Assembly (NCBI GenBank): GCA_000004985.1
Contig: GG738900.1
Direction: 5' to 3' (one strand)
DNA length: 64,000 bases
DNA from: Naegleria gruberi
Taxonomy: Eukaryota
Shown here: in pieces, positions 5,581 through 48,353 of the stretch
Layout: every line of letters starts with the position of its first letter
How positions within the stretch are numbered: position 1 is the first letter of the stretch
The notes under the pieces: generated by a model
Databases searched by the model: none
Seen by the model: only the letters and a program-made list of their open reading frames with translations
What the model was told of the DNA's origin: nothing
Program-made: the position numbers and the translations under genes

Positions 5581-6621
5581 TTAAGGAATTTGGAGAATAA
5601 TTTTTCCAACAGTTCTATTGGATTCACTCATTTTTTGAGCTTGTGAGGCTTGATCCAAACTTAGAATATGAATTGGAATGTCTTTCCATAAACCACTTTC
5701 ACTCAACCACTTTAAGATAACTGCCAATTGATCACCATCCCTTTCAGCATACAAATTTTTGGCTCTTTCACTTCCAAAAACCTTTCCAGAAATTCCTTGA
5801 GGTGTGTGAACAATTGTAACAAATTGTGATTCTTCATCTTGTTTGAGCAATTCAATGGAATAGTATTCTTGATAGGATCCAACAAAATCCAACACTATAT
5901 CAAAGGTACCTTTCAAAGATTCCAATTCATGAGTGAGATATTCCTTTCCCTTAGTGTAATCTAACACTTGATCAGCTCCCAACTTTCTAACAAAGTCTGC
6001 ATTCTTTGCTGATGAAATGGTAACAATCTTTTCAGCATTGAAATAATTCTTGGCAAGTAAAATACCTGACATTCCAACACCACCACTTCCACCAATGATT
6101 AGAACTTGTTTTCCTCTCAAGGAGTCTTTTTGTCCACTCTTACTTGATGGATGTCTGAGGAAACATTGAAAAGCAGTCAAGAAAGTTACTGGACACGAGG
6201 CAGCAACTTGATGACTAATTGATTCTGGATTAAGAGCTGCTTGAGATTCAGAGCAGACAACATATTGACTGTATGTTCCTCTGATGTGTGTCATGTTACA
6301 ACCACAAACTGAATCACCAATCTTGAATTTGGTTACTTTGGAACCAGTGGCAACTACAATTCCACTAACTATTCGAAGGTAAGAATGAAAAATATTAAAC
6401 TTACAATCAACTCCAAGAATCGTTGGATATGAATTAATATAAAACCCATATTGTCTTACTTTACAATCTAATGGATTAACTCCAGCATATTGATTTCTAA
6501 CAAGAATGTCATCTTCATTCAATTGTGGTAAATCAAATTTATGGTCAATTACAATGTCATCAGCACTGACATTGGCAGATTTAATAATTGCAGCAGTTTG
6601 AAAGGTTGGAAGACTTGACAT
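5581..6621 (-). CDS. zinc-type alcohol dehydrogenase-like / quinone oxidoreductase (MDR superfamily), 2 exons
   Basis: Exons are 6405-6621 and 5581-6368. A 36-nt in-frame, stop-free intron (minus strand GTAAGT...ATAG, 6369-6404) is read through by the track ORF. Removing it gives ILGVDFSGIVVATGSKV, the typical MDR G.D.(S/A)G.V...G block. The Rossmann motif is VLIIGGSGGVGMSGILLAK. Confidence 0.8.
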   Translation of the reverse strand: MSSLPTFQTAAIIKSANVSADDIVIDHKFDLPQLNEDDILVRNQYAGVNPLDCKVRQYGFYINSYPTILGVDCKFNIFHSYLRIVSGIVVATGSKVTKFKIGDSVCGCNMTHIRGTYSQYVVCSESQAALNPESISHQVAASCPVTFLTAFQCFLRHPSSKSGQKDSLRGKQVLIIGGSGGVGMSGILLAKNYFNAEKIVTISSAKNADFVRKLGADQVLDYTKGKEYLTHELESLKGTFDIVLDFVGSYQEYYSIELLKQDEESQFVTIVHTPQGISGKVFGSERAKNLYAERDGDQLAVILKWLSESGLWKDIPIHILSLDQASQAQKMSESNRTVGKIILQIP

Positions 6622-9091: not shown

Positions 9092-9301
9092 TTAAGGAAT
9101 GTGGAGAATGATCTTTCCAACAGTTCTATTGGATTCACTCATTTTTTGAGCTTGTGAGGCTTGATCCAAACTTAGAATGTGAATTGGGATGTCTTTCCAT
9201 AAACCACTTTCACTCAACCACTTTAAGATAATTGCCAATTGATCACCATCCCTTTCAGCATACAAATTTTTGGCTCTTTCACTTCCAAACAATTTCAACA
9301 A
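9092..9301 (-). pseudogene. orphan 3' fragment (last ~66 codons) of the quinone oxidoreductase gene
   Basis: KLFGSERAKNLYAERDGDQLAIILKWLSESGLWKDIPIHILSLDQASQAQKMSESNRTVGKIILHIP differs at only about 3 residues from the C-terminus of the 5581-6621 gene. Homology stops abruptly near 9290, and no upstream exons or ATG are present. Confidence 0.8.
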
Positions 9302-10103: not shown

Positions 10104-10220
10104 AATAAAGTTGAATTTTGTAATGATTGCACTGTCGTGGGCAACATGATCTAATAAACAATCTTGATATACGAATCTTGTGTTCAATGTATGATTGTTT
10201 AAAAGTTATTAAGGTAAAAA

Positions 10221-10338
10221 GACTACAGCACCACAGGTTCCCAAGTTGTCTCCAACCTCAGTACTGATGTGGCTCGACGATGCTTACCTTCTCAAATCGG
10301 ACGGGATGAGATGCATTCATCGTGATATGGCCGTAGCC
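10221..10338 (-). rRNA. 5S: 5S ribosomal RNA, copy 1
   Basis: The reverse complement reads GGCTACGGCCATATCACGATGAATGCATCTCATCCCGTCCGATTTGAGAAGGTAAGCATCGTCGAGCCACATCAGTACTGAGGTTGGAGACAACTTGGGAACCTGTGGTGCTGTAGTC followed by TTTTT. It has 5S hallmark blocks (GGCCATA, CCCGTCCGAT, AGTACT, GGGAA) and a helix I pairing of GGCTACGG with CTGTAGTC. The ends are uncertain by a few nt (8 nt upstream are also shared with copy 2). Confidence 0.9.
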
Positions 10339-10428
10339 ATTCATTTATTTAAGTTCTGAGTCATAAATCTTTAAGCAACAGTTAGGATTGTAAGGAATAT
10401 ATTTTAATCAAGATTTTGGTTTGTTCTT

Positions 10429-10520
10429 CACTATGAACATGCTTGACTCACAACGTTGATCACAGCTAAGCCATTGTGAAAATAATTGAGTCAAGCATGT
10501 TCATAGTGATCAACGTTGTG
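10429..10520. repeat. circularly permuted inverted repeat (22-bp and 15-bp arm pairs in 1-2-1'-2' order)
   Basis: A = cactatgaacatgcttgactca (10429-10450) has its perfect reverse complement at 10487-10508. B = cacaacgttgatcac (10449-10463) has its perfect reverse complement at 10506-10520. Confidence 0.85.
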
Positions 10521-10741
10521 CAGGATGTAATAGTTAAAGTTCATACTTTGCTCAAAATGGGAAGTTACTACCCTTAATAAGACCAATTTAAAAGAAAACA
10601 TTCATGTTCAATTTAGGAACTTTTAGAATTTTGACTTATTTTATTATCATCCACAAAGAAACCATTGTGCCAGCTCTTGTTGGTGCTAAATATGCTTGAT
10701 TTGGGTTATGTAAATTTCAAAGTGCAGAACATTTGAAAAAA

Positions 10742-13700
10742 ATGCTGAAAAACAGCATAACAGTAGATTTGAGCGGTAAGGACGGAGAAGATGGTCATCA
10801 AGGCAAGAGGTAAGAGTACATACCTCAATTTTTTTGATGTTAATATGTTGCCGAATTAGTGGACGTAATGGTGAAGTGGGAAAGGTAATGTTTCTAATCT
10901 CCCTTAATCATCATAAAATCACTGTTGTAAAATAGTCAGGGAAAAGTGGACAAATATCTGCCTTAAATAATGGAAATGGAAGTCATGGAGAACCAGGAGG
11001 ACCGTAAGTATATATTGCTGGAGTGAAATTAGCCATGTGTTAATAGAGGTGGAGATGGAGAGAATGGTGGAAAGTAAGTTCTAGCTGTTATTGAGTACTT
11101 GACCTTATTTAATATTCCTTCTCAACAACAGTGGAAAAAAGGGGCAACACGCAACAGCTGGTGGAAATATTTAAGTAAAAATTGAGGGATCCAATCACAA
11201 GTTAATCACTTTGAGTGGAAGTATCAATGATTCTGTGTGTTTGAATGATGGTGCTGGACAAGTTTTGGTGTTTCTGGCGAATGGTGGAAATGGTGGAAAG
11301 TGAGTATCAGTGTAGCTTTGATTTGAAGTGCTTACAATTATAGAGGTGGACGTGGAGGACCAGGTGGTAAGTTGCTGAATAGCAAACACGACTGAGAATG
11401 TAATTCATTCAGGAATGGGGGGAGTCGGCGGAAAAGGAGGAACTGGAGCAAGAGGTGGTAATGGTAGCTCTGGAGGTAATGGTATGAATGGTCAAGATGG
11501 TGGCAATGGAGGAAAGTAAGTATTGAATGATTGAGACAATTTTGAAACTAATAATTATTTCAGTGGTGGCGTGTAAGGAGAAATACAAGTTTAGTTAGTT
11601 GATTGAAATTTAGTGCTGGAAAAGGAGGAAATGGTGGAGAGTAAGTTTTAATAATTGGTTGGAAATTCATATGTGCGTTTAACAAGTGGAGGGGAAGGAT
11701 CCAAGTAGGTTTTTCAATTATTACAACTATTTTAATGTGGAATAGTGGTGGAAATGGTGGAAATGGAGGAAGTATTCTTATTGAAACAAATAATGCTTCC
11801 TTGTTGAAGTTTGTCAAAGCAGAAAGTCAACCAGGTAAAGGAGGAATGGATGGAAAAGGTGGCTCTGCAGGAAGTGCAGGTAAAGGAGGAGAGAAAGGAC
11901 CTGGAGGACCTGGTGGTAGAGGTGGTGCAGGAGGAGCTGCAATGGGAAGAGGAATAATCAATACAAGATCTGGATCCAATGGAAGGAATGGATCAGATGG
12001 AAAATCTGGACAAAAAGGTCAAGAAGGAAGGAAGGGAAATCCAGGACACACTGGACAAGATGGTACACCAGGAAATTTAACCATTAGAGTCTATGATCCT
12101 CTTACTAATCAACTTGTGGAGGAAGGTCATTCAATTTATAATTTGGTGGTAACAACATTCGAATTGTGTGGCTATGAAAATGATGGAATTTTTGAACCAG
12201 ATGAAAATGTCTTTATTACCAACGTTGGTGTTAAGAATCAAGGAGGATTGACATTACCATCAGGTTCAGTTCTCTCATTTCCAAGCACTCAAACATTTAT
12301 TTCAAACGGTGAATGTTATGTTTTGGAGAAGAATTTGGCACCAGGCGAATTCTTTTCAATTCCTTTCCAATTTTATGGTCGAGTTGTTGGAAGGAAACAA
12401 AAACAATTTGGCCCTTTCAAGTCAACAATTAGCATTCAATCAAGTGCTTGTCTGTTAACTTCTCCATTTAGTGAAGGTTTTGTTAAGAAGGAATATCCAG
12501 TTCAGTATCCAATAGTATTGGAAAGTGTGAAAGTTCCTAAAAGTTTGGGAAGAAATGAAAAAGGAACAGTTACAATCACCGTAAAGAATCAATCTCTTAT
12601 CAATTATGGCTCTTCATTGGGTGATGGATACAGAATTAAGTTTTGTTTAACTCTGGATTCAACGTATATCATTCTAACAGAAACAAGCGCAACTAATATA
12701 TTTGAAGAGGAAATTCCCTTCATCCAAGCAGGAATGTCATACTCTAGAACGTTTAACATTGAAACAACTATCAATGCCCAATTCTATGAAACCATTCCAA
12801 TTCAAACAAATTTATTTTTGAGAGGACATCCTATTGAGGAATCATTGAACTCCATTCGTATTCAACCAACATACATTCCAACTAATCTCGATTCTCCAAA
12901 TCCTTTCGATGTGCTCTTCTTCTCAGATAAGCACATTAATAGGCAGGAATTTTCAAATTACATGTCCCTGCTTGGTAGAATAGGATTGAACGTGAATGTA
13001 TGGGATATTGAGAGATACGGTGGACTATCTTATAATAATAAGGGTAAGAGACATACAAAATCATGGATTGATGGTGGTTATGAAGGTAAAATGATAATAA
13101 TGCCTCTTATGGAACAAGGCTCTGAAAAACAAATGGCTGTCTCAGATATTTTCCAACATTTCAGGGGCAAAAATTGGCAAAATGATTCATCAAAACCAAA
13201 CAATGGATCTATCGTTTTTATCGGTAACCCTTCTGATTCATTCAAAAGTCAACTCTTTGGCGAATGCTCAGCCCAACAAATCCCAGAATCTGAACTAAGA
13301 GAAATGTTTCTGCTTTCTGAACCGAATGAAAGCTCAATGCTTAAGAAAGCAACAGAGTTTATTAAATCCCTCAATAAGACACATCCATCAAGGGTTTATA
13401 GAACTGAAAATGTGTTATTCAATCCTCAAAAAGATGGCTCATTATCAAAAACTTTATTAGGATCAGCTGATTATAAGGAATTACCCTTAAGCACTGCTGA
13501 TGCTTTATATTTCATTCCAACAAAGAGTGGAAACTCTTCTGGATTCATGAACGGAGGTATTACACTTCAAATTGAAAGCAAATCAAATATTGGAAAATTG
13601 CTTAACACTATTCTATATTCACTTCCTGTTGAGAAAAAATTGGAATTGTTAAGGAAACCAACCGAATGGCTTTCCAAAGTTCAAATTAAGGATGAAAATG

Positions 13701-13960
13701 GTGATTTACTTAATTATGTAACTTGTATTATCTTTGCTCTAAGCTTTAATCTGTTTTTGGAAATAATTTACAACGATGAAAATGGAAGATTTTCAACGGG
13801 TATTGAAGCAGATTTTGAAGCACATTTTGATGAATATAAGAATCATCCTCAATCCAAACAAATTGTTGAAACTCTATATTTGGTATTAAAGAAACTTGGC
13901 AGTGAATTAAAATGGAGAGGAACATCGGTACCTAGCATTAAGGAAAGGAAAAACCTATGA
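10742..13960 (+). CDS. glycine-rich / collagen-like repeat protein with a large unrecognised C-terminal region; 11 exons (contains an in-frame TAA)
   Basis: Exons are 10742-10809, 10860-10884, 10936-11003, 11047-11073, 11132-11299, 11344-11366, 11413-11515, 11564-11572, 11614-11640, 11687-11704 and 11746-13960. All ten introns are GT..AG and 41-58 nt. The chain encodes Gly-X-Y runs (GHQGKSGRNGEVGKSGKSGQ; GRNGSDGKSGQKGQEGRKGNPGHTGQDGTPG) and GGNGGxGG runs. TAA at 11172-11174 is in frame within exon 5. Confidence 0.6.
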
Positions 13961-14666: not shown

Positions 14667-15060
14667 TTTTTTCTTTTGTGTGGCTGGTATGTTAAAACAA
14701 TGATGAACTTAAACATCCTAAAGGTTTACATTCGGTGAACATAAACAATTCTAGAAAAAACGAAATTTTGTAATGGCATTCTGAGTTCACATTCAATTTT
14801 TATCAGTTTCCATTCAATACAACTTTCCATCTATACCTCTAAATAGACTGGTTAATTGTTTTACTTCTGATGTAACATTTACAATGACACATAATCAAGC
14901 AAATCTTAGAGATAGATATTCGTAGAATTAGTTGTTACTGTGAAAAACAACCAACTTCCCAAACTAATCTTCGGAGTTGTTTTTGGAATTTTGTCAACTC
15001 CTCAACTTCTTTAAAAAGAAGGACATTATGATAATCTTATACAAGAAAAAAACAACAAAG

Positions 15061-18000
15061 ATGAATCACAAAGGTTTTGCATTGCTTCTTGTGTTAACAT
15101 GTCTGTTGTTTATTACCATTCATCCAATAATGACTAGTGAACAAATTATTCGAAACCTTGCCGGTCAAGGAATATGTGATGGTCATTTATCAACAAATGC
15201 ACCAGTCAATCCCAGTGATTGTGCCTTTTTGGATGAAGAAATGTTAATTGCAGATGCCACTAATCATAGAATTCGTAAAGTTTTCACAAATGGAACAATT
15301 GTAACCATAGCTGGAAATGGATTTGCTGGTTACAATGGAGATGGTTTAGATGCAACAAGTGCTCAATTGAACAATCCAGTTGGCATTTATGTTGATACCA
15401 ATAGTAGAGAAGTTTACATTGCTGATTCTAATAATCATCGAATTCGTAAAATATTACAGAATGGAAAAATTACAACAATTGCTGGAACAGGAATTGCTGG
15501 CTACAATGGAGATGACAAAAGTGCAGACAGTGCCCAATTGAACACCCCAAGTGGAATTGTTATTGATCCAAATAATGGAGAAATTTTCATTTCAGATTCT
15601 AAAAATCACAGAATTCGTAAAATTTTACAAAATGGTAAAATTACAACAATTGCTGGAACTGGAGAAGCTGGTTACAATGGAGATGGAATTGAGGCAAAGT
15701 TTGCAAAATTGTATCTACCAAACGGAATTGATTTGTATGAGAAAGAGTTGTTTATTGCTGATCAAAATAATCATAGAATTCGTAAAGTTTCGCTTGATAC
15801 TGGACTAATTTCAACTATTGCTGGAAATGGAAATTCAGGTTACAATGGAGATAACATTCTGGCAACAAACTGTAAATTGAGTTTACCTGCAGGAGTTAGA
15901 TACGATTCGAAAAGAAGAGAAGTTTACATTGCTGATTCCAACAACCAAAGAATTCGTAAAATATTAGAAAGTGGAATAATTGTAACAATTGCTGGAACAG
16001 GAGAAGCTGGATTTGATAATATTCTCAATGCTACCCAATCAAAGGTTAATCATCCTAATAGTGTTACTTTGAACGAATTAGGGGAAGTTTTCATTTCAGA
16101 TTCACAAAATTATCGAGTACGAAAGATTACAACAGAAAGTGGAATAATTACAACAATTGTAGGAAATGGATTTGAAAAGTATTGCACAGATTTAGCTAGT
16201 AACACACCATTGTTTTATCCTCGTGGTATAATTTCGAATGAAAATGGAGAATTTTTCTATGCCGATTCTAGCAACCATTGTATTCGAAAAATTCTGACAA
16301 ATGGTACAATTCTTACAATTGCTGGAACAGGTACTAAGGGTTACAATGGAGATGGAATTGAAGCAACAAGTGCTCAATTAAATACTCCTCACGATGTTGC
16401 ATTAAACTTGGCAACTGGCGAGATTTACATTGCAGATACGGAAAATAATAGAATAAGAAAAATTTTGACAAATGGTACAATTACAACAATTGCAGGAACT
16501 GGAGATTATGGATACAATGGAGATGGAATCATGGCTGTAGATGCATGGTTGAATGAACCGAGTGGTGTTGAAATTGATTCCACTAGCGGTGAAGTTTTCT
16601 TTTCTGATACTGAAAATTTCAGAATTCGAAGAGTTTCGAATAGTGGAATAATTACAACAATTGCAGGAACTGGAAAATCAAAATTTAATGGAGATGGTAT
16701 GGCAACAGACACGAATCTTGCTACTCCAACTGAAATTCAATACGTTCCAAGTACTACTGAAATTTATTTTGCTGATTCTGGAAATAATAGAATTAGAAAA
16801 TTTACTATAAATGGAATGATGACAACTATTGCTGGAACAAGCACAAGTGGATATAATGGTGATAATATGCCTGCAACACGTGCTTGGTTGAATTTTCCAG
16901 TTGGTGTAACATACGATCCAAAAACCAATCAAGTTTATATTGCCGATTTATCTAATCACAGAATTAGAAAAATTCTGACAAATGGTACAATTACAACCAT
17001 TGCTGGAACAGGAAAAGGAGGTTATAATGGTAATAACTTGACAGCCTTATCCACTCAAGTGAATGGACCTCATGGAATGATACTACAACCGAATGGTGAT
17101 GTAATCTTTTCAGATAGCACCAATAATGTCATTAGAATTATCAGATCTGATCAAATTTATTGTAATGGAACATTGTCAAGTGATTTGAATGTTTGTAATG
17201 GTCGTGGTTGGTGCATGGAGAGTGGAAAATGCTCTTGTCAAGACGGATGGATTGGTGATTATTGTTCAGAGCCAACATGTGAAAATGATTGTTATGGACA
17301 TGGAAGATGTGTTTCGAATAATACATGTGAATGTGAATATGGTTGGGATGGAAACTCTCACTGTTCTCAATTTTCATGTGGTGGATTGAATAATTGTAAC
17401 TCGAATGGTTTATGTGTTTCGAATAATACTTGCAGTTGCCAATCAGGATGGGCTGGAACTGATTGTTCTCAATTTACTTGTTCTGGCGCTAGCAATTGTT
17501 CAGATCATGGTTCCTGCATTTCGAATAATACTTGTCATTGCAATTCTGGTTGGAAAGGAAATGCCCAATGTTCCCAATTTACTTGTGAACTCACAAATGA
17601 TTGTTCGAATCATGGCTTGTGTGTTTCGAATAATACTTGTCAATGTAGTTCAGGTTGGAATTTCATTAATTGTTCCATCAAAGAATGTCTCATTTCAATT
17701 GTTTCAGGTTCAAGAGAATTGATATGTGGAAATGATAATTCTTCTGGTCAACTGAAAACATTTAGCAGAATAACGACTCCAGTAATTGAAACAACAAGTT
17801 TCGAATTGAATGAAAATCAACATGTAAATGTTGATATTGGATCAAGAATAATGAATTTGGATCTATCTCAAGACAAGTATTTCATAACCTCTTCATGGAC
17901 CAATTCGAATAATTTATTCTTTACCAATGTTTCCAATTTACTAATTCAAAACTCAGGTTCATCACTTATTCAAGCAGAACTTTCAACAAAAATCAAGTAT

Positions 18001-18789
18001 TCTTTCACGCATCATTCAAATCTTGATATCATGTCATTTAACTATAATTGTTTAAGATTTGACATCCTGTCACATTTGTGGACAAATCAATCCATAACAA
18101 CAAGCATTTCTCCACAAACTAACTCCATTACATGCACAACTATATTCATTTCTTCAGTAGTTGTTCAAAGAACTTTAATCCCTTCACCATCAATCTCACC
18201 AAAACACTCATCAAATCCATTTCCATCAATTTCACATGAAAATTCAATTCCACTCCCAAGCGATGAGACAATTACATTGAATATCCAACCTGGAGAATCA
18301 ATTCTCTATCAAATAACTCTTCCATCCATGAAAAGACTTTCACTTTCGTGTAAAACAATTTCAGGAAGAGATTTAAATTTGTTTATTGGAGAAAATTTCA
18401 AACCGTCTTATGAAATGTACTCAAAAGTTATGAATTCTAATCAGGAAATGGATTTTGAAAATTGGAAGTCGATATACCAGGTGTTTTACATTCGAGTTCA
18501 AGGTTTGAAAGATTCAACAACTCAATTCACTATAAGAGCTTCAATTAGTCAACTGAGACAAGTGAATTCTTCGAGTGGAGCAAGAAATGATAATTACACC
18601 ATTGGATTAATCGTCTCAAGTGTTATTTCACTTCTATTATTAATCATTACCATCCTAACTGTTCTTAGTTGTGTTTTCTATTGGAGAAAGAAACGTAAAC
18701 TTATGGAAGAAACCAGAACGAAACTACTTTCAACTCCTAATTCGCTTCAGTATTCACCTCACCAACCGTATGAAATGGAGGAAGCATAA
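15061..18789 (+). CDS. type I membrane protein with ~14 NHL repeats and 5 tenascin-type EGF repeats
   Basis: The start is signal-peptide-like (MNHKGFALLLVLTCLLFITIHPIMT; ATG 15061, in frame inside track ORF 14977). Units of about 57 aa (NHRIRK(I/V)..NG.I.TIAGTG.AGYNGDG..A..A.LN.P.G) span about 15250-17150. EGF units (C..F(S/T)C....C..HG.C.SNNTC.C..GW.G) span about 17160-17690. The TM segment is IGLIVSSVISLLLLIITILTVLSCVFYW followed by RKKRK (about 18600-18700). Confidence 0.8.
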   Translation: MNHKGFALLLVLTCLLFITIHPIMTSEQIIRNLAGQGICDGHLSTNAPVNPSDCAFLDEEMLIADATNHRIRKVFTNGTIVTIAGNGFAGYNGDGLDATSAQLNNPVGIYVDTNSREVYIADSNNHRIRKILQNGKITTIAGTGIAGYNGDDKSADSAQLNTPSGIVIDPNNGEIFISDSKNHRIRKILQNGKITTIAGTGEAGYNGDGIEAKFAKLYLPNGIDLYEKELFIADQNNHRIRKVSLDTGLISTIAGNGNSGYNGDNILATNCKLSLPAGVRYDSKRREVYIADSNNQRIRKILESGIIVTIAGTGEAGFDNILNATQSKVNHPNSVTLNELGEVFISDSQNYRVRKITTESGIITTIVGNGFEKYCTDLASNTPLFYPRGIISNENGEFFYADSSNHCIRKILTNGTILTIAGTGTKGYNGDGIEATSAQLNTPHDVALNLATGEIYIADTENNRIRKILTNGTITTIAGTGDYGYNGDGIMAVDAWLNEPSGVEIDSTSGEVFFSDTENFRIRRVSNSGIITTIAGTGKSKFNGDGMATDTNLATPTEIQYVPSTTEIYFADSGNNRIRKFTINGMMTTIAGTSTSGYNGDNMPATRAWLNFPVGVTYDPKTNQVYIADLSNHRIRKILTNGTITTIAGTGKGGYNGNNLTALSTQVNGPHGMILQPNGDVIFSDSTNNVIRIIRSDQIYCNGTLSSDLNVCNGRGWCMESGKCSCQDGWIGDYCSEPTCENDCYGHGRCVSNNTCECEYGWDGNSHCSQFSCGGLNNCNSNGLCVSNNTCSCQSGWAGTDCSQFTCSGASNCSDHGSCISNNTCHCNSGWKGNAQCSQFTCELTNDCSNHGLCVSNNTCQCSSGWNFINCSIKECLISIVSGSRELICGNDNSSGQLKTFSRITTPVIETTSFELNENQHVNVDIGSRIMNLDLSQDKYFITSSWTNSNNLFFTNVSNLLIQNSGSSLIQAELSTKIKYSFTHHSNLDIMSFNYNCLRFDILSHLWTNQSITTSISPQTNSITCTTIFISSVVVQRTLIPSPSISPKHSSNPFPSISHENSIPLPSDETITLNIQPGESILYQITLPSMKRLSLSCKTISGRDLNLFIGENFKPSYEMYSKVMNSNQEMDFENWKSIYQVFYIRVQGLKDSTTQFTIRASISQLRQVNSSSGARNDNYTIGLIVSSVISLLLLIITILTVLSCVFYWRKKRKLMEETRTKLLSTPNSLQYSPHQPYEMEEA

Positions 18790-23780: not shown

Positions 23781-23856
23781 TTTTTTAAATGGCAGTACTC
23801 TATGAATCAACATTGATTTACCTAATAAAAAACCTTTATTTTTGAATTGTCAAAAA

Positions 23857-23974
23857 GACTACAGCACCACAGGTTCCCAAGTTGTCTCCAACCTCAGTAC
23901 TGATGTGGCTCGACGATGCTTAACTTCTCAAATCGGACGGGATGAGGTGCATTCATCGTGATATGGCCGTAGCC
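23857..23974 (-). rRNA. 5S: 5S ribosomal RNA, copy 2
   Basis: The 118 nt differ from copy 1 at 2 positions (plus strand gcttaActtc vs gcttaCcttc; gatgagGtgc vs gatgagAtgc). A T5 terminator follows on the minus strand. Confidence 0.9.
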
Positions 23975-24102
23975 ATTCATTTTCTTAATTTGTGATATAT
24001 AAAACATCTTCTTAAAATCTTAATGTTGAATAAGTCAATGAATTCTTTGTTCGCACACAGAATAGTAACTTTCAAATTCCGCTAAAAATTAGAACAAAAA
24101 AA

Positions 24103-29329: not shown

Positions 29330-31597
29330 ATGCCATCATCAAAAGAAGAACGAAAATCTTCATCATCAAAAATTGCCGATAAACCTAAATATGAATTGCT
29401 CACAGACAAGGACTTTAAGAGAGCAGAACAATTAACTGAGGAAAAAAAGCTACAAGATAAAGATTTTCAAGACAAGGAAAAGAAACAAAGAAAGGAAAGA
29501 AATGAATTCTTGTTTAAAAAGACCAAGAATTTGTTAAAAACCTACGAGAAATCTAAATTTTATCAAAAGACGAAACTTTTAACAAATGATGCACTTGATA
29601 AGTATAAAAGAAAGAGTACAATCGATGAAAAACCAATCCCTAAAAGGGAGATGGCATTCTACCAATATAAAAACAAATTAGCTAACAAACAAGAAGTTTC
29701 AAGGAATATCCTTTGGACTGATGTCGATCGTTCGAAAGCTGAAGCAAGATTGGCTAGATCCGAAGTTTTGAGAACCAAAGAAAATGAAGAAAGAGGTATT
29801 GAATTGGATGATAGTGATATTTACTCTAAAACATATCAACTTTCACAGGAAGCAATTTTGAAGGATGTAGATGAAAATACTAGAAAGAAAATATTTGATA
29901 TTGAACTTACACAATATTCACCGTATAAGATTCAATATAGTTTGAGTGGTAGAAAATTACTTTTGGGTGGTGTGAAAGGTCACATTTCAACATTGGATTG
30001 GAGAAAATTTGAAATGCTTCATGAAAATCATTTCAGTGAACCATGTAAGGCAGTTCAATGGTTGATGGATGATGGCATGTATGCTGTTGCTCAATCACCA
30101 TTTACCTATGTTTATAATGAACAAGGTGTAGAAATTCACATGTGTAGAGATTTCCATAAGGTTGAATTCCTTTCTTACTTACCTTTCCATTATTTACTTG
30201 TTGGTGCTAGTAGACAACAAAATTTACCAACAGGAAATAGTGGTCAAATCATTTTCAAGGATATTTCATTGGGTGAAAACGTATCAACAGTTAAATTAGA
30301 TCCAATTTCATGCATGACACCAAATCCATATAATGCTGTTATGTGTGTTGGTCATTTGAATGGTACTGTTTCAATGGTATTACCTCGTGATAAGGATTAC
30401 AAACCAGTCGTTTCCATGTTCTGTCATCAAGCTCCAATTAAACATTTGGCAGTTGATCCAACAGGTCGTTATATGGTTACAAGTGCTGCTGATGATAAGG
30501 TTAAAGTTTGGGATATTAGAAATACCTATCAACCATTGACAACAGTTGATACTCTTGAACATCTTAATCAAATTAGACCAAAGAATGGCGATCATATTAC
30601 TTCTATGGCTGTTTCACAATCGGGAATGGTTGCTGTTTCACTTAAACATACAGTAGCAATATGGAAGAATTTGACTCACATAAATCAAGCTGATAAGGAA
30701 ATTTACTTGCTTCACAAGATGCCAAATCATACCACAGTTTCAGATTTATCATTCTGCCCATATGAAGATATTCTTGGTGTTGGTCATTCTAGAGGATTCA
30801 GTAGTTTAATTGTTCCAGGTTCTGGTTCAAGCTCTTACGATTCTAGAATGCCTAATCCTTACTTTACTGATAAACAAGTTAAGGACTTTAACGTGAGAAC
30901 CTTGCTTGAAAAGATTCCATATGAAATGATTTGTTTGGATCCAACAGTGATTGGTACATCAGGTATGAGAGAAAAGGATCACTCCTACTCATCTCAAGTT
31001 GAAATCTCAGAAGAATTGAAACAAGAATTGAGCAGAGTTGGTCTCAAGGAAGAAGAAAGAAAAGAAGCTGAAAAGAGAAAACGTTTAACCTCAAGAGATC
31101 AATACAGAGAAGAACTCTTTAACAAATATCAAGAAATGAAAGCAGCCATACCAAAGAATTGGTATGATGAAGAAGATGCTGATGCTTTGGATCGTTTTGC
31201 CTCATTAAAGAAGAGAAAGATAAAGTACGACGAAAAGAAGAGAGAAGATACTCGAAAGCAACAAGAACAAACTGAAGAATCAGATAGAGTCAAACAATTG
31301 AAGAGACAATTGAGTGGCGATGATTCTGGAGATGAGGAAGAATCATCTGGTGATGAAGACGAAAATATGCTCAAATTATCATCTTCAGGAAAGAAGAAGC
31401 AACAAGAAGGCGACGAAGATGATGAGGAACAAGACGATGAAGAACAAATGGACAATCAAGCTGATGACGACGAAGATGAGGAAGAACAAGAAGACGACGA
31501 AGACCAACAAGCAAACATTTCAGAGGAATCTGATGATTACGAAAGCGATGAAAGTGAGGAAGAAGACACCAACTCAATAATTGATCCATTCGCATAA
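29330..31597 (+). CDS. UTP7: U3 snoRNP protein UTP7 / WDR46 (BING4)
   Basis: 755-aa ORF with WD40 repeats (GHLNGTVSM, CHQAPIKHLAVDPTGRYMVTSAADDKVKVWDIR). The BING4 C-terminal block is PGSGSSSYDSRMPNPYFTDKQVKDFNVRTLLEKIPYEMICLDP. The tail is long and acidic. Confidence 0.85.
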   Translation: MPSSKEERKSSSSKIADKPKYELLTDKDFKRAEQLTEEKKLQDKDFQDKEKKQRKERNEFLFKKTKNLLKTYEKSKFYQKTKLLTNDALDKYKRKSTIDEKPIPKREMAFYQYKNKLANKQEVSRNILWTDVDRSKAEARLARSEVLRTKENEERGIELDDSDIYSKTYQLSQEAILKDVDENTRKKIFDIELTQYSPYKIQYSLSGRKLLLGGVKGHISTLDWRKFEMLHENHFSEPCKAVQWLMDDGMYAVAQSPFTYVYNEQGVEIHMCRDFHKVEFLSYLPFHYLLVGASRQQNLPTGNSGQIIFKDISLGENVSTVKLDPISCMTPNPYNAVMCVGHLNGTVSMVLPRDKDYKPVVSMFCHQAPIKHLAVDPTGRYMVTSAADDKVKVWDIRNTYQPLTTVDTLEHLNQIRPKNGDHITSMAVSQSGMVAVSLKHTVAIWKNLTHINQADKEIYLLHKMPNHTTVSDLSFCPYEDILGVGHSRGFSSLIVPGSGSSSYDSRMPNPYFTDKQVKDFNVRTLLEKIPYEMICLDPTVIGTSGMREKDHSYSSQVEISEELKQELSRVGLKEEERKEAEKRKRLTSRDQYREELFNKYQEMKAAIPKNWYDEEDADALDRFASLKKRKIKYDEKKREDTRKQQEQTEESDRVKQLKRQLSGDDSGDEEESSGDEDENMLKLSSSGKKKQQEGDEDDEEQDDEEQMDNQADDDEDEEEQEDDEDQQANISEESDDYESDESEEEDTNSIIDPFA

Positions 31598-36756: not shown

Positions 36757-38427
36757 ATGCAGTTAAATCTTAACTATTTTGTGAGAGTGTTTATGCTCAA
36801 ACTGTGGTTTTTAATTTTCAATTATCCACTTTCTCTACTTACGGCCATCCTTTCCATGATGATAATTTATAGAGCTTCACAGAAGAAGAATTCGCCTCTT
36901 CCTCTCGATAAAAGATTACCTATTGAAGATAGTAGTAGTGGTACAACACTTGGATCATCAGGAATAGGTTCTCTTATATCTAATTCTGTTAATTCTGTTG
37001 CTGATGTAACAACAGTGACTTCTTCATCTAATAACAACAACAACAACAACTGGTCGGCCACAGTTGCTTCAATTTATAGTTCTTCATCTGATGATGAAAC
37101 GGAAAAACCAACATCAAGATTTACTAGTTTTATTAATTATTTCTGGGGAGGAGGAAAAACTCATCACAACGTTGATGACAATATCAGCACAACAAGTACA
37201 TCATCAGAAAATTCAACAATCTCCCCAGCTGATGGTAATCATATGTATTCCATGTTTGATAATGTTGATTCTAATGATCCAAACCAAAGTAATCTTTTAC
37301 GATGTCCTCCTAAATTATTAGAAGATCCAATGAAGTTGTTGGGAAGAACTGTCTTGATGGTAGGAGGTTGTTGTGAAGGTGTAGGATATGAAATTGCTTA
37401 TGCACTTGCACAGTTAGGTGCTAGAAAGGTTGTTTTAGCTTGTGCAAATGAACATGAAGCCCAAGAAGCAATCGAGAAAATGACAGATATTAGTCGAGGA
37501 GTTGTTGAATTTATGCATCTAGATTTATCTTCCATTCAAAGTATACGTCAATTTGTTAATTTCTATCAAAATGTTATGAATTATGAGTGCCACGTCCTAG
37601 TTAGTACTGTTCTTTGCACAAGACAGAGTAACATGGGAAAGAACACTTCTAATAATAACAGTAGTAGACAATTACAAAACCAATTTATTGGTCCTAGATT
37701 TACCAAAGATGGTTATGAAAAAAACTTCCAACTCAATTATTTGGGAAGAATTATTCTTATTGATATGATGTCGGATATGTTAAAGAGAAATCATACAAGG
37801 GTTGTTAATGTTGTGGAAATATTAAGTGAATCCCTTAAACAACAAAAACCTATGAAAATGATACCTAACTCTGATTTGAATGCTAGTACATTCAAGAAAG
37901 CATATACTGAACAAGACTATTTTAATTACTCTATGAGATGTAATTTATTATGGATTAAAATGTTTGCAAAGAAATATCAACAAGATGGTGTGACAATTTG
38001 TTGTTGCGACCCTGAACTTCCTGGAACCTACAAACCTCCAATTCCTGATATTATTAATCAACCTACCTCTACTTCCTCACTTCTTTCAGATCCATATTTT
38101 ATGGATCCAAACTCACATGATGTATTGTCAATCACTAATGAATACGCTGAAGAAATTACCAATTTTGATAAGATACAAAGTTTACTTTATGGGTCACTAT
38201 GTGATAAGCAATATTTTGAAAATGGTGCCTACATAACGAATTATAGAACTAAAAAACTTCCTTCCTCCTATTCGAATAAGAAAGATATGGAGCTGAATTG
38301 GGAACAAACAGCTTCACTCGTAACAGAGATACAGAGTTCTGTCATTTCTCAACACTCCTCTCCTTCAATCAGTGTTAATTCTTCTCCTACCCTTCCCATC
38401 CCTTCCTCCTCTCAGAACGAACCATAA
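36757..38427 (+). CDS. membrane-anchored short-chain dehydrogenase/reductase-like protein
   Basis: Track ORF 36682 starts at TTG; the first ATG is 36757 (MQLNLNYFVRVFMLKLWFLIFNY..., TM). The Rossmann-like segment is VLMVGGCCEGVGYEIAYALAQLGARKVVLACANEHEAQEAIEKM. Low-complexity Ser/Asn linkers are present. Confidence 0.6.
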   Translation: MQLNLNYFVRVFMLKLWFLIFNYPLSLLTAILSMMIIYRASQKKNSPLPLDKRLPIEDSSSGTTLGSSGIGSLISNSVNSVADVTTVTSSSNNNNNNNWSATVASIYSSSSDDETEKPTSRFTSFINYFWGGGKTHHNVDDNISTTSTSSENSTISPADGNHMYSMFDNVDSNDPNQSNLLRCPPKLLEDPMKLLGRTVLMVGGCCEGVGYEIAYALAQLGARKVVLACANEHEAQEAIEKMTDISRGVVEFMHLDLSSIQSIRQFVNFYQNVMNYECHVLVSTVLCTRQSNMGKNTSNNNSSRQLQNQFIGPRFTKDGYEKNFQLNYLGRIILIDMMSDMLKRNHTRVVNVVEILSESLKQQKPMKMIPNSDLNASTFKKAYTEQDYFNYSMRCNLLWIKMFAKKYQQDGVTICCCDPELPGTYKPPIPDIINQPTSTSSLLSDPYFMDPNSHDVLSITNEYAEEITNFDKIQSLLYGSLCDKQYFENGAYITNYRTKKLPSSYSNKKDMELNWEQTASLVTEIQSSVISQHSSPSISVNSSPTLPIPSSSQNEP

Positions 38428-40002: not shown

Positions 40003-40051
40003 TTTTTTGACCCTGCAGTAAAAATAAAAAATTTATTGCAGGGTCAAAAAA
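40003..40051. repeat. perfect 15-bp-stem palindromic hairpin (left bracket of the AT-rich block)
   Basis: ttttttgaccctgca (40003-40017) pairs with tgcagggtcaaaaaa (40037-40051) across a 19-nt A/T loop. It abuts ATG 40052 and contains CCTGCAGTA. Confidence 0.9.
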
Positions 40052-40693
40052 ATGCTTAAACAACCCAAACGCAAAAAACAAAAACAGGACCATCAAAACA
40101 CAACTTCATCAATAACAACATCAACCCCAACAACATCAACAACAACAACAACAACTTCATCGATTAGAAAGTGTATTGTTAATTGTATCAATAATCAAAT
40201 ACACTTTTCTAAATCGGAAACACTAGTAACTTTATTAAAAGATTCAATGAATAAGAAGGAGTCATCAAATGAAATTTGTATTGTTTGTAAAAACGGAACA
40301 CCAGATAGTCATAAAGTTAGACCCTATGATCATTTTAAACCACATTCTAAAAAGATTATTAAATTATCAAATAATATTCCTATTAAATCTATTAATAATT
40401 ATGATGAGTTAATTAAAGAAATGATTAGTAATAATTTTGCTAAATTTAAGAATAATAATAATATTATTGAACAATATAATGATTATGTTAATACTAAATT
40501 ACAATTAAATGATGAAGAAAAAGAATTAATATTTACAAATAATTTTTTTAACAAATTTAATTTTAAACATGATAGGCTCGATACTTTAGATTATTTACAT
40601 AAAATTAATACACTACAACAAAAAATTAATACAGCTATTTGTCTTCAAATTCTTTTAAAGAATTTTGTTTCGAAGATAAAAAATTCTGAATAG
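40052..40693 (+). CDS. orphan ORF (213 aa), Thr/Asn-rich, no recognisable family
   Basis: ATG-to-TAG ORF in very AT-rich DNA, where stop codons should be frequent. The N-terminus is a basic/poly-Thr low-complexity region. Confidence 0.4.
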   Translation: MLKQPKRKKQKQDHQNTTSSITTSTPTTSTTTTTTSSIRKCIVNCINNQIHFSKSETLVTLLKDSMNKKESSNEICIVCKNGTPDSHKVRPYDHFKPHSKKIIKLSNNIPIKSINNYDELIKEMISNNFAKFKNNNNIIEQYNDYVNTKLQLNDEEKELIFTNNFFNKFNFKHDRLDTLDYLHKINTLQQKINTAICLQILLKNFVSKIKNSE

Positions 40694-41816: not shown

Positions 41817-42035
41817 TCAAATAATTACAAATAGTAATGTCTTTTTAAGTTTATTTACGTTTATTGAAATATTAACGTTTATTTATATATATTACTATTT
41901 GTTGAATAAATTAACAGTATTTATTATTAATAAAACCTAGTTTAATGTTTAATCATAATGAAGCAAACAATTTGTATTAAATAATAATCATTTGATACAT
42001 AATAATACATAATCTTCCGGCATGGAATAATAGGT

Positions 42036-42066
42036 GCCTGCAGTATTTATTTTTAAAATACTGCAG
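42036..42066. repeat. 12-bp-stem palindromic hairpin (right bracket of the AT-rich block)
   Basis: cctgcagtattt (42036-42047) pairs with aaatactgcagg (42055-42066) across a 7-nt loop. It is extendable with G-U/A-T pairs to 42033-42069 and shares the CCTGCAGTA core with the hairpin at 40003. Confidence 0.9.
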
Positions 42067-42136
42067 GTATTAATTATCAGCCGAGTTTTTTTGCACAGCC
42101 ATCGCTGGGAGGTTTTTACCACCCTCTCATTTTAAC

Positions 42137-42916
42137 ATGTCAAACACCACAGAATCAGACAAACTTCACAATGATGAAGCAGTGTGCGTCTCGTCATCCG
42201 ATGAAGAAGAATTTATCAGCAAGGATAAGCAAAAAGGTCACAAGGGAGTATTTATTGAAATCGGAGAACGTATGAAAAGATATGAAGCCAATCAAGGATT
42301 ATTCTTGGATGAAACCAAGCCGTATATGGCCAGATTGGATGGTCATAAATTCTCAACATTTGCTCGTCCATTTAGGTATGTAATGATATGAATTGATTGT
42401 ATTAAATTAATTCTTGATATTCAGAAAGCCATATGATAACTTGTTGCATGCAGTCATGGTTCAAACAGCTGCTGATCTGTGGAACAATTTAATGATGNNN
42501 NNNNNNNNNNNNNNNNNNNNNNNNNNNNNNNNNNNNNNNNNNNNNNNATTTGGGCAGCATTCTATTCTACCAAGGAAATGCATGGATTGAAAGCTCGTCA
42601 AGTTGTTGAGAAATTGAAAGAGGATAAGAATGTTGATTGGAATGATTATCCAATGGGTTATCGTTACGGAACTTTTATTAAAAAGTCAAAATACGAAAAG
42701 AATGTCAAGAATCCAAAAACAGGTGAAGAATTGGTGTGTATGAGAACTAAATCAGAAGCATTTTCATTCAAATTGGAAGATTTCGATTCAAAATATATTG
42801 AATTGTTTAATCTCAAGACATGGAATGAAGTTTTTGAAAAGGGAATTTTGAATAGAGATGATTTAATTCTTGAGCCATTGTTTAGTGATTTGTTGGCTTC
42901 AGATAACAAAGAATAA
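42137..42916 (+). CDS. THG1: tRNA-His guanylyltransferase (Thg1)-like protein, 2 exons, interrupted by an assembly gap
   Basis: Exon 1 is 42137-42375, the intron is 42376-42424 (GTATGT..TCAG), and exon 2 is 42425-42916. IGERMKRYE...YMARLDGHKFSTFARPFRKPYDNLLHAVMVQTAADL parallels human THG1L [23 protein letters not shown]. The N gap at 42498-42547 removes the catalytic middle. Confidence 0.7.
42498..42547. other. assembly gap (50 N) inside the Thg1-like gene
   Basis: Run of n characters. It produces the X run in track ORF 42479-42916. Confidence 0.99.
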
Positions 42917-48040: not shown

Positions 48041-48146
48041 ATCTTTACCCGTAACAAATAAATCAATTAAACAATTCGTTCACTCTTAATATCATTAATT
48101 TTTAGCCATTTCCAAATCCTTTTAGTCGGTTGGCAAAGAAAACAAA

Positions 48147-48235
48147 AGGCGACTGAGGGAATTGAACCCTCGACCCTCAGTTATCTCAGCATTACTGCCT
48201 ACAAGACTGATGCACTGCCACTGTGCTAAGCCGCC
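48147..48235 (-). tRNA. tRNA-Thr(UGU): tRNA-Thr (anticodon UGU) with a 17-nt intron
   Basis: The minus strand reads GGCGGCT TA GCAC AGTGGCA GTGC A TCAGT CTTGTA[GGCAGTAATGCTGAGAT]A ACTGA GGGTC GAGGG TTCAATT CCCTC AGTCGCC T. The intron sits at the canonical 37/38 position, and TTTTGTTTT follows downstream. Confidence 0.8.
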
Positions 48236-48353
48236 TTACATGCATCAAAAAAATTATAAAAACCTGTGCTAAAGCAACACATGTCAAACTTTCTTCAAAA
48301 ATTTTCCACTTGAAGTTCAATTAGACATTAGACTTGAAAAAAAAGGCTTTACA

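Follow-up and report, generated by a model that had tools for sequence, protein, structure and literature searches.

Interleaved perfect inverted repeats upstream of a 5S rRNA gene in Naegleria gruberi: the probable footprint of a single template-switch mutation

[quoted passage not shown] The model includes type 3-1-4-2, which belongs to the event types that proceed without the need to reopen a new helix (PMC5453318), and the events reported there were inferred from pairs of closely related genomes. A replication template switch likewise underlies quasipalindrome correction and spacer inversion (Ripley 1982, via PMC5453318 and PMC8604942), where inverted repeats become perfect and the spacer is invertible; the classic process needs a pre-existing near-perfect repeat and gives one nested pair. 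Microinversions between human and chimpanzee, for which a model of microhomology-mediated break-induced replication (MMBIR) was put forward, have lengths of 17–33 nt, are mostly pure inversions between pre-existing repeats, and extend with their edges a few nt into the inverted repeats that flank them (PMC8755829). Furthermore, template switches can make perfect RNA stems in one step (PMC8794818), and the title of a preprint reports de novo miRNAs arising by template switching. Two other kinds of system resemble the locus described here in parts. H-type pseudoknots and bistable RNA switches are characterized by the order 1-2-1′-2′ and by mutually exclusive full-length helices, and foldback elements and MITEs are short, non-coding, intergenic, and rich in inverted repeats.

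The locus is part of a stretch of 64 kb of Naegleria gruberi DNA, hereafter called the window, with a G+C content of ~33%, dense long ORFs, and short introns starting with gtaagt. One of its ORFs (29330–31594) is identical over its full length (100%) to the NCBI entry "WD40 repeat-containing protein [Naegleria gruberi]". Judging from this identity together with the G+C content, the dense long ORFs, and the gtaagt introns, the window is nuclear DNA of this amoeboflagellate. It contains two N runs representing assembly gaps (846–914 and 42498–42547) and a 91-nt tRNA-Thr(TGT) at 48146–48236, which presumably contains an intron.

The repeat under study is located within a 404-bp divergent intergenic region between a 5S rRNA gene and a glycine-rich gene (Table 1). 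As the 5S gene is encoded on the minus strand, the repeat lies upstream of it, covering the positions 90–182 bp from its 5′ end. On the other side, the putative ATG of the glycine-rich gene (plus strand) follows at a distance of 223–315 bp. The putative structure of this gene, as read from the sequence, begins with short 5′ exons separated by gtaagt introns, and its last exon (11735–13960) carries the DUF7932 domain. Its best homologue is 41% identical and resides on a metagenome contig of 7,990 bp. No entry of the protein collection matches the glycine-rich gene at 100%, whereas another N. gruberi protein of the window has such a match; the reference may lack an annotation of this gene. The two dispersed 5S genes differ from each other at two positions, and their common upstream sequence is limited to ~20 bp (TTAAnnAAATGAAT directly before the gene; 10339–10360 and 23975–23996), which may represent an upstream promoter element.

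Table 1. Coordinates of the interleaved repeat, the putatively copied fragment, and neighboring genes in the 64-kb window.
Feature	Position	Strand	Remarks
Arm A (alpha)	10428–10450	plus	perfect 23-bp pairing with 10487–10509; TGACTCA at 10444–10450
Arm B (beta′)	10449–10463	plus	perfect 15-bp pairing with 10506–10520
Spacer	10464–10486	plus	
Arm A′ (alpha′)	10487–10509	plus	
Arm B′ (beta)	10506–10520	plus	
Fragment putatively copied from the opposite strand (2->3)	10449–10509		55–61 nt, depending on switch-point placement within the microhomologies
5S rRNA gene	10220–10338	minus	Rfam RF00001, 98.5 bits
Second 5S rRNA gene	23856–23974		Rfam
Glycine-rich gene	10743–13960	plus	collagen-like G-X-Y repeats and DUF7932 domain

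The repeat consists of two perfect inverted-repeat pairs in the order A-B-spacer-A′-B′ with linkers of zero length. The sequence CACTATGAACATGCTTGACTCA (10429–10450) of arm A recurs as its exact reverse complement at 10487–10508, and the same applies to arm B (CACAACGTTGATCAC) and arm B′. Arm B in turn contains the palindromes CAACGTTG and TGATCA. Arms A and B overlap by CA (2 nt), and arms A′ and B′ by GTG, or by GTGA when the 23rd pair is counted. A repeat finder returned the B pair with 15 nt and 100% complementarity, and a longer, imperfect version of the A pair (10423–10450/10487–10514; 28 nt, 93%). In a scan for maximal perfect inverted repeats, the A pair measured 23 bp and the B pair 15 bp, and all 38 paired positions are intact without a single mismatch. 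The preliminary description of this locus, made from the sequence alone, had named both pairs with the correct length for B; its value of 22 bp for the A stem falls one pair short of the perfect-repeat scan. Its order 1-2-1′-2′ was recovered in the sequence as well as by the repeat finder, and the statement that the full helices are mutually exclusive is formally correct, as linkers of zero or negative length do not allow both to coexist.

To judge these arms against chance, we compared them to 30 first-order Markov simulations of the window. In total, three perfect inverted repeats of at least 13 bp within a span of 260 nt were found in the 64 kb (23, 15, and 15 bp), two of which belong to this site, and the A/A′ pair is the longest of the whole window. 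The longest perfect repeat per simulation had a mean of 13 bp and a maximum of 15 bp, and the arms of interleaved abutting pairs added up to no more than 20, compared to 38 here. The interleaved repeat is therefore real and far beyond simulated chance. Other intergenic hairpins of the window were also noted, i.e., at 40003–40051 (arms of 20 nt with 95% complementarity, loop of 9 nt), ending one base ahead of an ATG at 40052, and at 42027–42077 (arms of 22 nt with 82% complementarity, loop of 7 nt). They have the core CCTGCAGTA in common, which occurs nine times within one mismatch compared to 4.6 expected occurrences.

The arrangement of the arms follows a simple rule. The block 10449–10509 (B-spacer-A′) has a left flank that is the reverse complement of its own right end and a right flank that is the reverse complement of its own left end; apart from the ambiguity at the junctions, it equals rc(A + rc(spacer) + B′). 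The four-point operation turns a sequence R = alpha-sigma-beta into alpha | beta′ sigma′ alpha′ | beta, and the repeat was probably left behind by a single inter-strand template switch of type 3-1-4-2. The ancestor would have been a repeat-free sequence of 60 nt, with alpha-sigma-beta corresponding to A + rc(spacer) + B′ (CACTATGAACATGCTTGACTCAATTATTTTCACAATGGCTTAGCTGTGATCAACGTTGTG). Replication would have copied alpha, jumped onto the complementary strand where beta ends on its far side, copied backward via beta, sigma, and alpha, and then returned to the start of beta, where regular copying resumed. The resulting alpha | beta′ sigma′ alpha′ | beta would be a micro-inversion bordered on each side by an inverted copy of one of its own ends. 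Arms A and B′ would accordingly be the retained left and right segments of the ancestor, and arms B and A′ the first and last parts of the reverse-complement copy. According to the four-point reconstruction, the spacer would now be inverted, its ancestral orientation being ATTATTTTCACAATGGCTTAGCT. The predicted pre-event allele reads GTTCTT CACTATGAACATGCTTGACTCA ATTATTTTCACAATGGCTTAGCT GTGATCAACGTTGTG CAGGATG; it would be 32 nt shorter than the present one and carry the spacer in the opposite orientation.

We examined this scheme by a script that placed the 60-nt ancestor between the real flanks and applied one four-point operation. A single operation reproduced 10329–10620 base for base, which demonstrates sufficiency and parsimony rather than history, as the ancestor was itself derived from the derived sequence. 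Fifteen equivalent placements of the switch points were obtained, all in the order 3<1<4<2, and they differ only within the junction microhomologies of 2 nt (CA) and 4 nt (GTGA). In this scheme, the CA overlap represents 2 nt of ambiguity or microhomology where the first switch took place, and the GTG(A) overlap a 3–4-nt microhomology at the return junction. Depending on the placement, the fragment between points 2 and 3 replaces 23–29 ancestral bases; the derived form has 92 nt compared to 60 nt in the ancestor, a net gain of 32 nt. Except for the 8-bp palindrome CAACGTTG, the ancestor is devoid of inverted repeats.

The reconstruction also accounts for the periodicity in the preliminary description, which had regarded both halves of the locus (S1 and S2) as excerpts of one 32-nt periodic sequence. 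Formally, they are excerpts of about 1.1 units in opposite orientations; the period, however, depends on wrap-arounds of just 3 nt (S1) and 2 nt (S2), and the 32 nt are the net length gained. One event would account for the circular permutation as well as for the linkers of zero length and the 32-nt period. The interleaved order, the abutment at both junctions without an unrelated linker, and the equal perfection of both pairs are demanded by the model and were all found, while neither two independent events nor a designed element would require them. We infer the event, its direction, and its single-event nature from this architecture and the exact regeneration of the sequence, not from direct observation. 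As none of the 38 paired positions carries a mismatch, the event appears to be recent or otherwise preserved, and it is possibly polymorphic among strains. Some points speak against a template switch. Perfect arms would also be expected if pairing was under selection, and for a short-range switch, both the copied fragment (55–61 nt) and its arms (23 and 15 bp) seem long next to the 17–33 nt of the human–chimpanzee microinversions, which stem from a different data set and permit a loose comparison only.

Among the described systems, the 3-1-4-2 events of the four-point model come closest. They share the identical structure alpha | beta′ sigma′ alpha′ | beta, including interleaved perfect repeats, an inverted spacer, abutting arms, and short microhomology. 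Differences lie in the reconstruction of the ancestor from the derived sequence instead of a comparison of related genomes, in the host, a heterolobosean amoeba, and in arms and a fragment that appear long for the class (PMC5453318). Quasipalindrome correction differs in its starting material and product, as the inferred ancestor was repeat-free and two interleaved pairs are present. Regarding the microinversions, the repeats would here have been made by the event itself, with a gain of 32 nt (PMC8755829). A full-stem pseudoknot of the H-type is impossible with zero or negative linkers. Unlike in foldback elements and MITEs, the arms are interleaved and not terminal, a target-site duplication is missing, and the scans of the window and of metagenome and viral contigs yielded no other copy. 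Altogether, we regard the locus as an unusually clean new instance of a known, rare template-switch class, and both its 32-nt period and its alternative hairpins as by-products.

We searched for other copies and for an ancestral allele. The N. gruberi genome has a size of 41 Mb; within the 64-kb window, the 32-mer unit and the 22-mer of arm A had no further match with up to three mismatches. Arm B had a single 14/15 match at 37165, which was set aside as chance since it sits within a long ORF. Neither the 22-mer nor a 20-mer spanning the A–B junction had an exact hit in JGI metagenome contigs, and the 22-mer likewise had none in viral contigs. The preliminary description had asked whether other 5S loci carry the repeat. 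At the second 5S locus of the window it is absent, and similarity is restricted to the gene and ~20 bp upstream. Upstream of the 41%-identical homologue of the glycine-rich gene, the 7,990-bp contig contains neither a 5S gene nor a comparable inverted repeat. Given its absence from both places, the repeat is linked neither with 5S genes nor with the family of the neighboring gene. As outgroup, this homologue proved too distant. A segmental duplication within the window (5432–5822/8900–9333) could not be used as internal outgroup either, because it stops ~900 bp short of the site. Its copies are 92–97% identical with small indels and carry tRNA-Glu(TTC) together with the 3′ end of a minus-strand ORF (5581–6621); the second copy resembles a truncated gene fragment (ORF 9092–9301). 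Exact look-ups of two ORFs of the window, made in search of other assemblies of the locus, found neither on record.

On both strands, and as RNA as well as DNA, the sequence is predicted to fold into the A/A′ hairpin. Its energy amounts to −46.3 kcal/mol (plus strand) and −46.1 kcal/mol (minus strand) as RNA and to −27.4 kcal/mol as DNA, with z-scores of −6.3 to −7.2. We further compared minimum free energies with helix A or helix B forced. The values for A and B were −46.3 and −33.7 kcal/mol for plus-strand RNA, −46.1 and −29.8 kcal/mol for minus-strand RNA, −27.4 and −19.4 kcal/mol for plus-strand DNA, and −27.6 and −18.8 kcal/mol for minus-strand DNA. Forcing B/B′ therefore costs 12.6 kcal/mol in plus-strand RNA, 16.3 kcal/mol in minus-strand RNA, and ~8–9 kcal/mol in DNA, and the equilibrium population of hairpin B is predicted to be 1e-9 to 7e-12 as RNA and 2–3e-6 as DNA. 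The structural switch proposed earlier from the mutually exclusive hairpins is thus unsupported at equilibrium. With hairpin B 12.6–16.3 kcal/mol worse as RNA, the locus is no balanced switch and differs in this respect from bistable RNA switches. These energies leave only a kinetic scenario, which would take place on a putative minus-strand transcript where B′ emerges before A′.

Which other processes could have led to the same sequence? We consider it unlikely that several events or another repair route were responsible. Such a route could comprise a pair of consecutive template switches or a series of jumps (FoSTeS/MMBIR-like) in which A is copied first and B afterward, a double-strand break repaired by MMBIR, or a micro-inversion between staggered breaks, in which the overhangs are filled in and inverted duplications arise at both ends. 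The final sequence is indistinguishable between these routes, the junction microhomology of 2–4 nt suits microhomology-mediated repair, and MMBIR was proposed over template switching at the fork for some microinversions flanked by inverted repeats (PMC8755829). However, one operation suffices, and two independent events would have to abut exactly at both junctions, for which we estimate, by reasoning, a chance of a few per thousand; the equal perfection of both pairs likewise fits a single age. In the case of staggered breaks, overhangs of 15–23 nt at both ends of a 60-bp segment would be mechanically awkward. We also worked through a tandem duplication with inversion between the arms by hand, which took at least three steps and was dropped for the one-step model. 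All of these repair routes are scars of local rearrangement. The fallback of the preliminary description, a local replication-slippage artefact, comes close to the best explanation in that it assumes a local replication artefact; the mechanism it names, slippage, gives way to template switching. An artefact of cloning, sequencing, or assembly, e.g., a chimeric foldback made in vitro, is extremely improbable. Polymerases are able to switch templates in vitro, and the locus is covered by a single assembly only; nevertheless, the site is 9.5 kb away from the nearest assembly gap, and its flanks are continuous, with an intact 5S gene on one side and a gene start on the other.

The remaining readings attribute the repeat to an element rather than to a scar. 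It is improbable that the repeat serves as a functional element in the intergenic region shared by the 5S gene and the glycine-rich gene. As such, it could provide paired palindromic transcription factor sites, i.e., TGACTCA/TGAGTCA (AP-1/GCN4-like), CAACGTTG, and TGATCA, and its location within a divergent promoter region as well as three TGASTCA motifs within 137 bp (10357, 10444, and 10487) fit this idea. However, with 13 occurrences in the window compared to 14.9 expected ones, TGASTCA is not enriched, and the event itself would have made two of the three local copies; CAACGTTG occurs four times compared to 0.48 expected occurrences, and half of these are the repeat itself. Alternatively, a transcript hairpin could act, either miRNA-like or as a kinetic switch in minus-strand RNA, where B/B′ would form first and be displaced by A/A′. 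The stability of the hairpin (−46 kcal/mol as RNA, z-scores of −6.3 to −7.2), the integrity of every paired position, the reported creation of RNA hairpins by template switches, and weak generic matches to miRNA precursors (E = 0.03–0.5) are in line with such a role. These matches, which concern both strands, reflect the hairpin shape only. A search of 10300–10800 against Rfam at permissive thresholds returned sub-threshold generic hairpin matches, the best being MIR9408 with 23.4 bits compared to a gathering score of 90. Against a functional switch stands the energetic disadvantage of hairpin B as RNA, and against function in general the absence of the repeat at the other 5S locus and upstream of the distant homologue. 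A small mobile element of the foldback or MITE type, or a relic of a 32-nt tandem or rolling-circle repeat, is very improbable. Both origins had been proposed in the preliminary description, and S1 and S2 can formally be read as excerpts of one periodic sequence. The wrap-arounds of 2–3 nt are equally well explained as junction microhomology, Tandem Repeats Finder detected no array at this site, and a tandem or rolling-circle template becomes unneeded when one switch from the 60-nt ancestor suffices. Similarly, the proposal of a foldback element received no support. The interleaved arms are not terminal inverted repeats, the flanks GTTCTT and CAGGATG show no target-site duplication when read from the sequence, and a second copy was lacking in the window (up to three mismatches), including the other 5S locus, as well as in the two exact metagenome scans and the viral scan. 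Regarding tandem repeats elsewhere in the window, a 171-nt repeat with 3.6 copies and 73–78% matches was noted at 15233–15852 inside a long ORF (14977–18789); its consensus looks like an NHL-type protein repeat. Taken together, the repeat is most likely an ordinary mutational scar of a template switch, rather than a mobile element or a designed structural switch.

For the locus itself, the template switch would have added 32 bp to the shared upstream region and inverted ~55 bp of it, while sparing the ~20 bp conserved upstream of the 5S genes. It would also have created a hairpin of very high stability, both in single-stranded DNA and in any transcript. In the case of transcription, this hairpin could provide raw material for small-RNA processing, and on the minus strand a kinetic change of fold would be possible, with B/B′ forming first and A/A′ displacing it. 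The chance is slim that the newborn 23-bp perfect hairpin, made in one step in a divergent promoter or 5′ region, marks the de novo birth of a structured RNA; if true, such a birth would have been caught in the act in a protist. The finding opens no new biological question. It offers a worked example in which an exotic appearance, i.e., circular permutation, pseudoknot topology, and a 32-nt period, can be reduced to one known replication error, and it provides an explicit and testable ancestral sequence of 60 nt. The rare template-switch class with two repeats, so far catalogued mainly in primates, would thus leave recognizable scars in a distant protist as well, and such events can put a very stable hairpin beside genes in one step.
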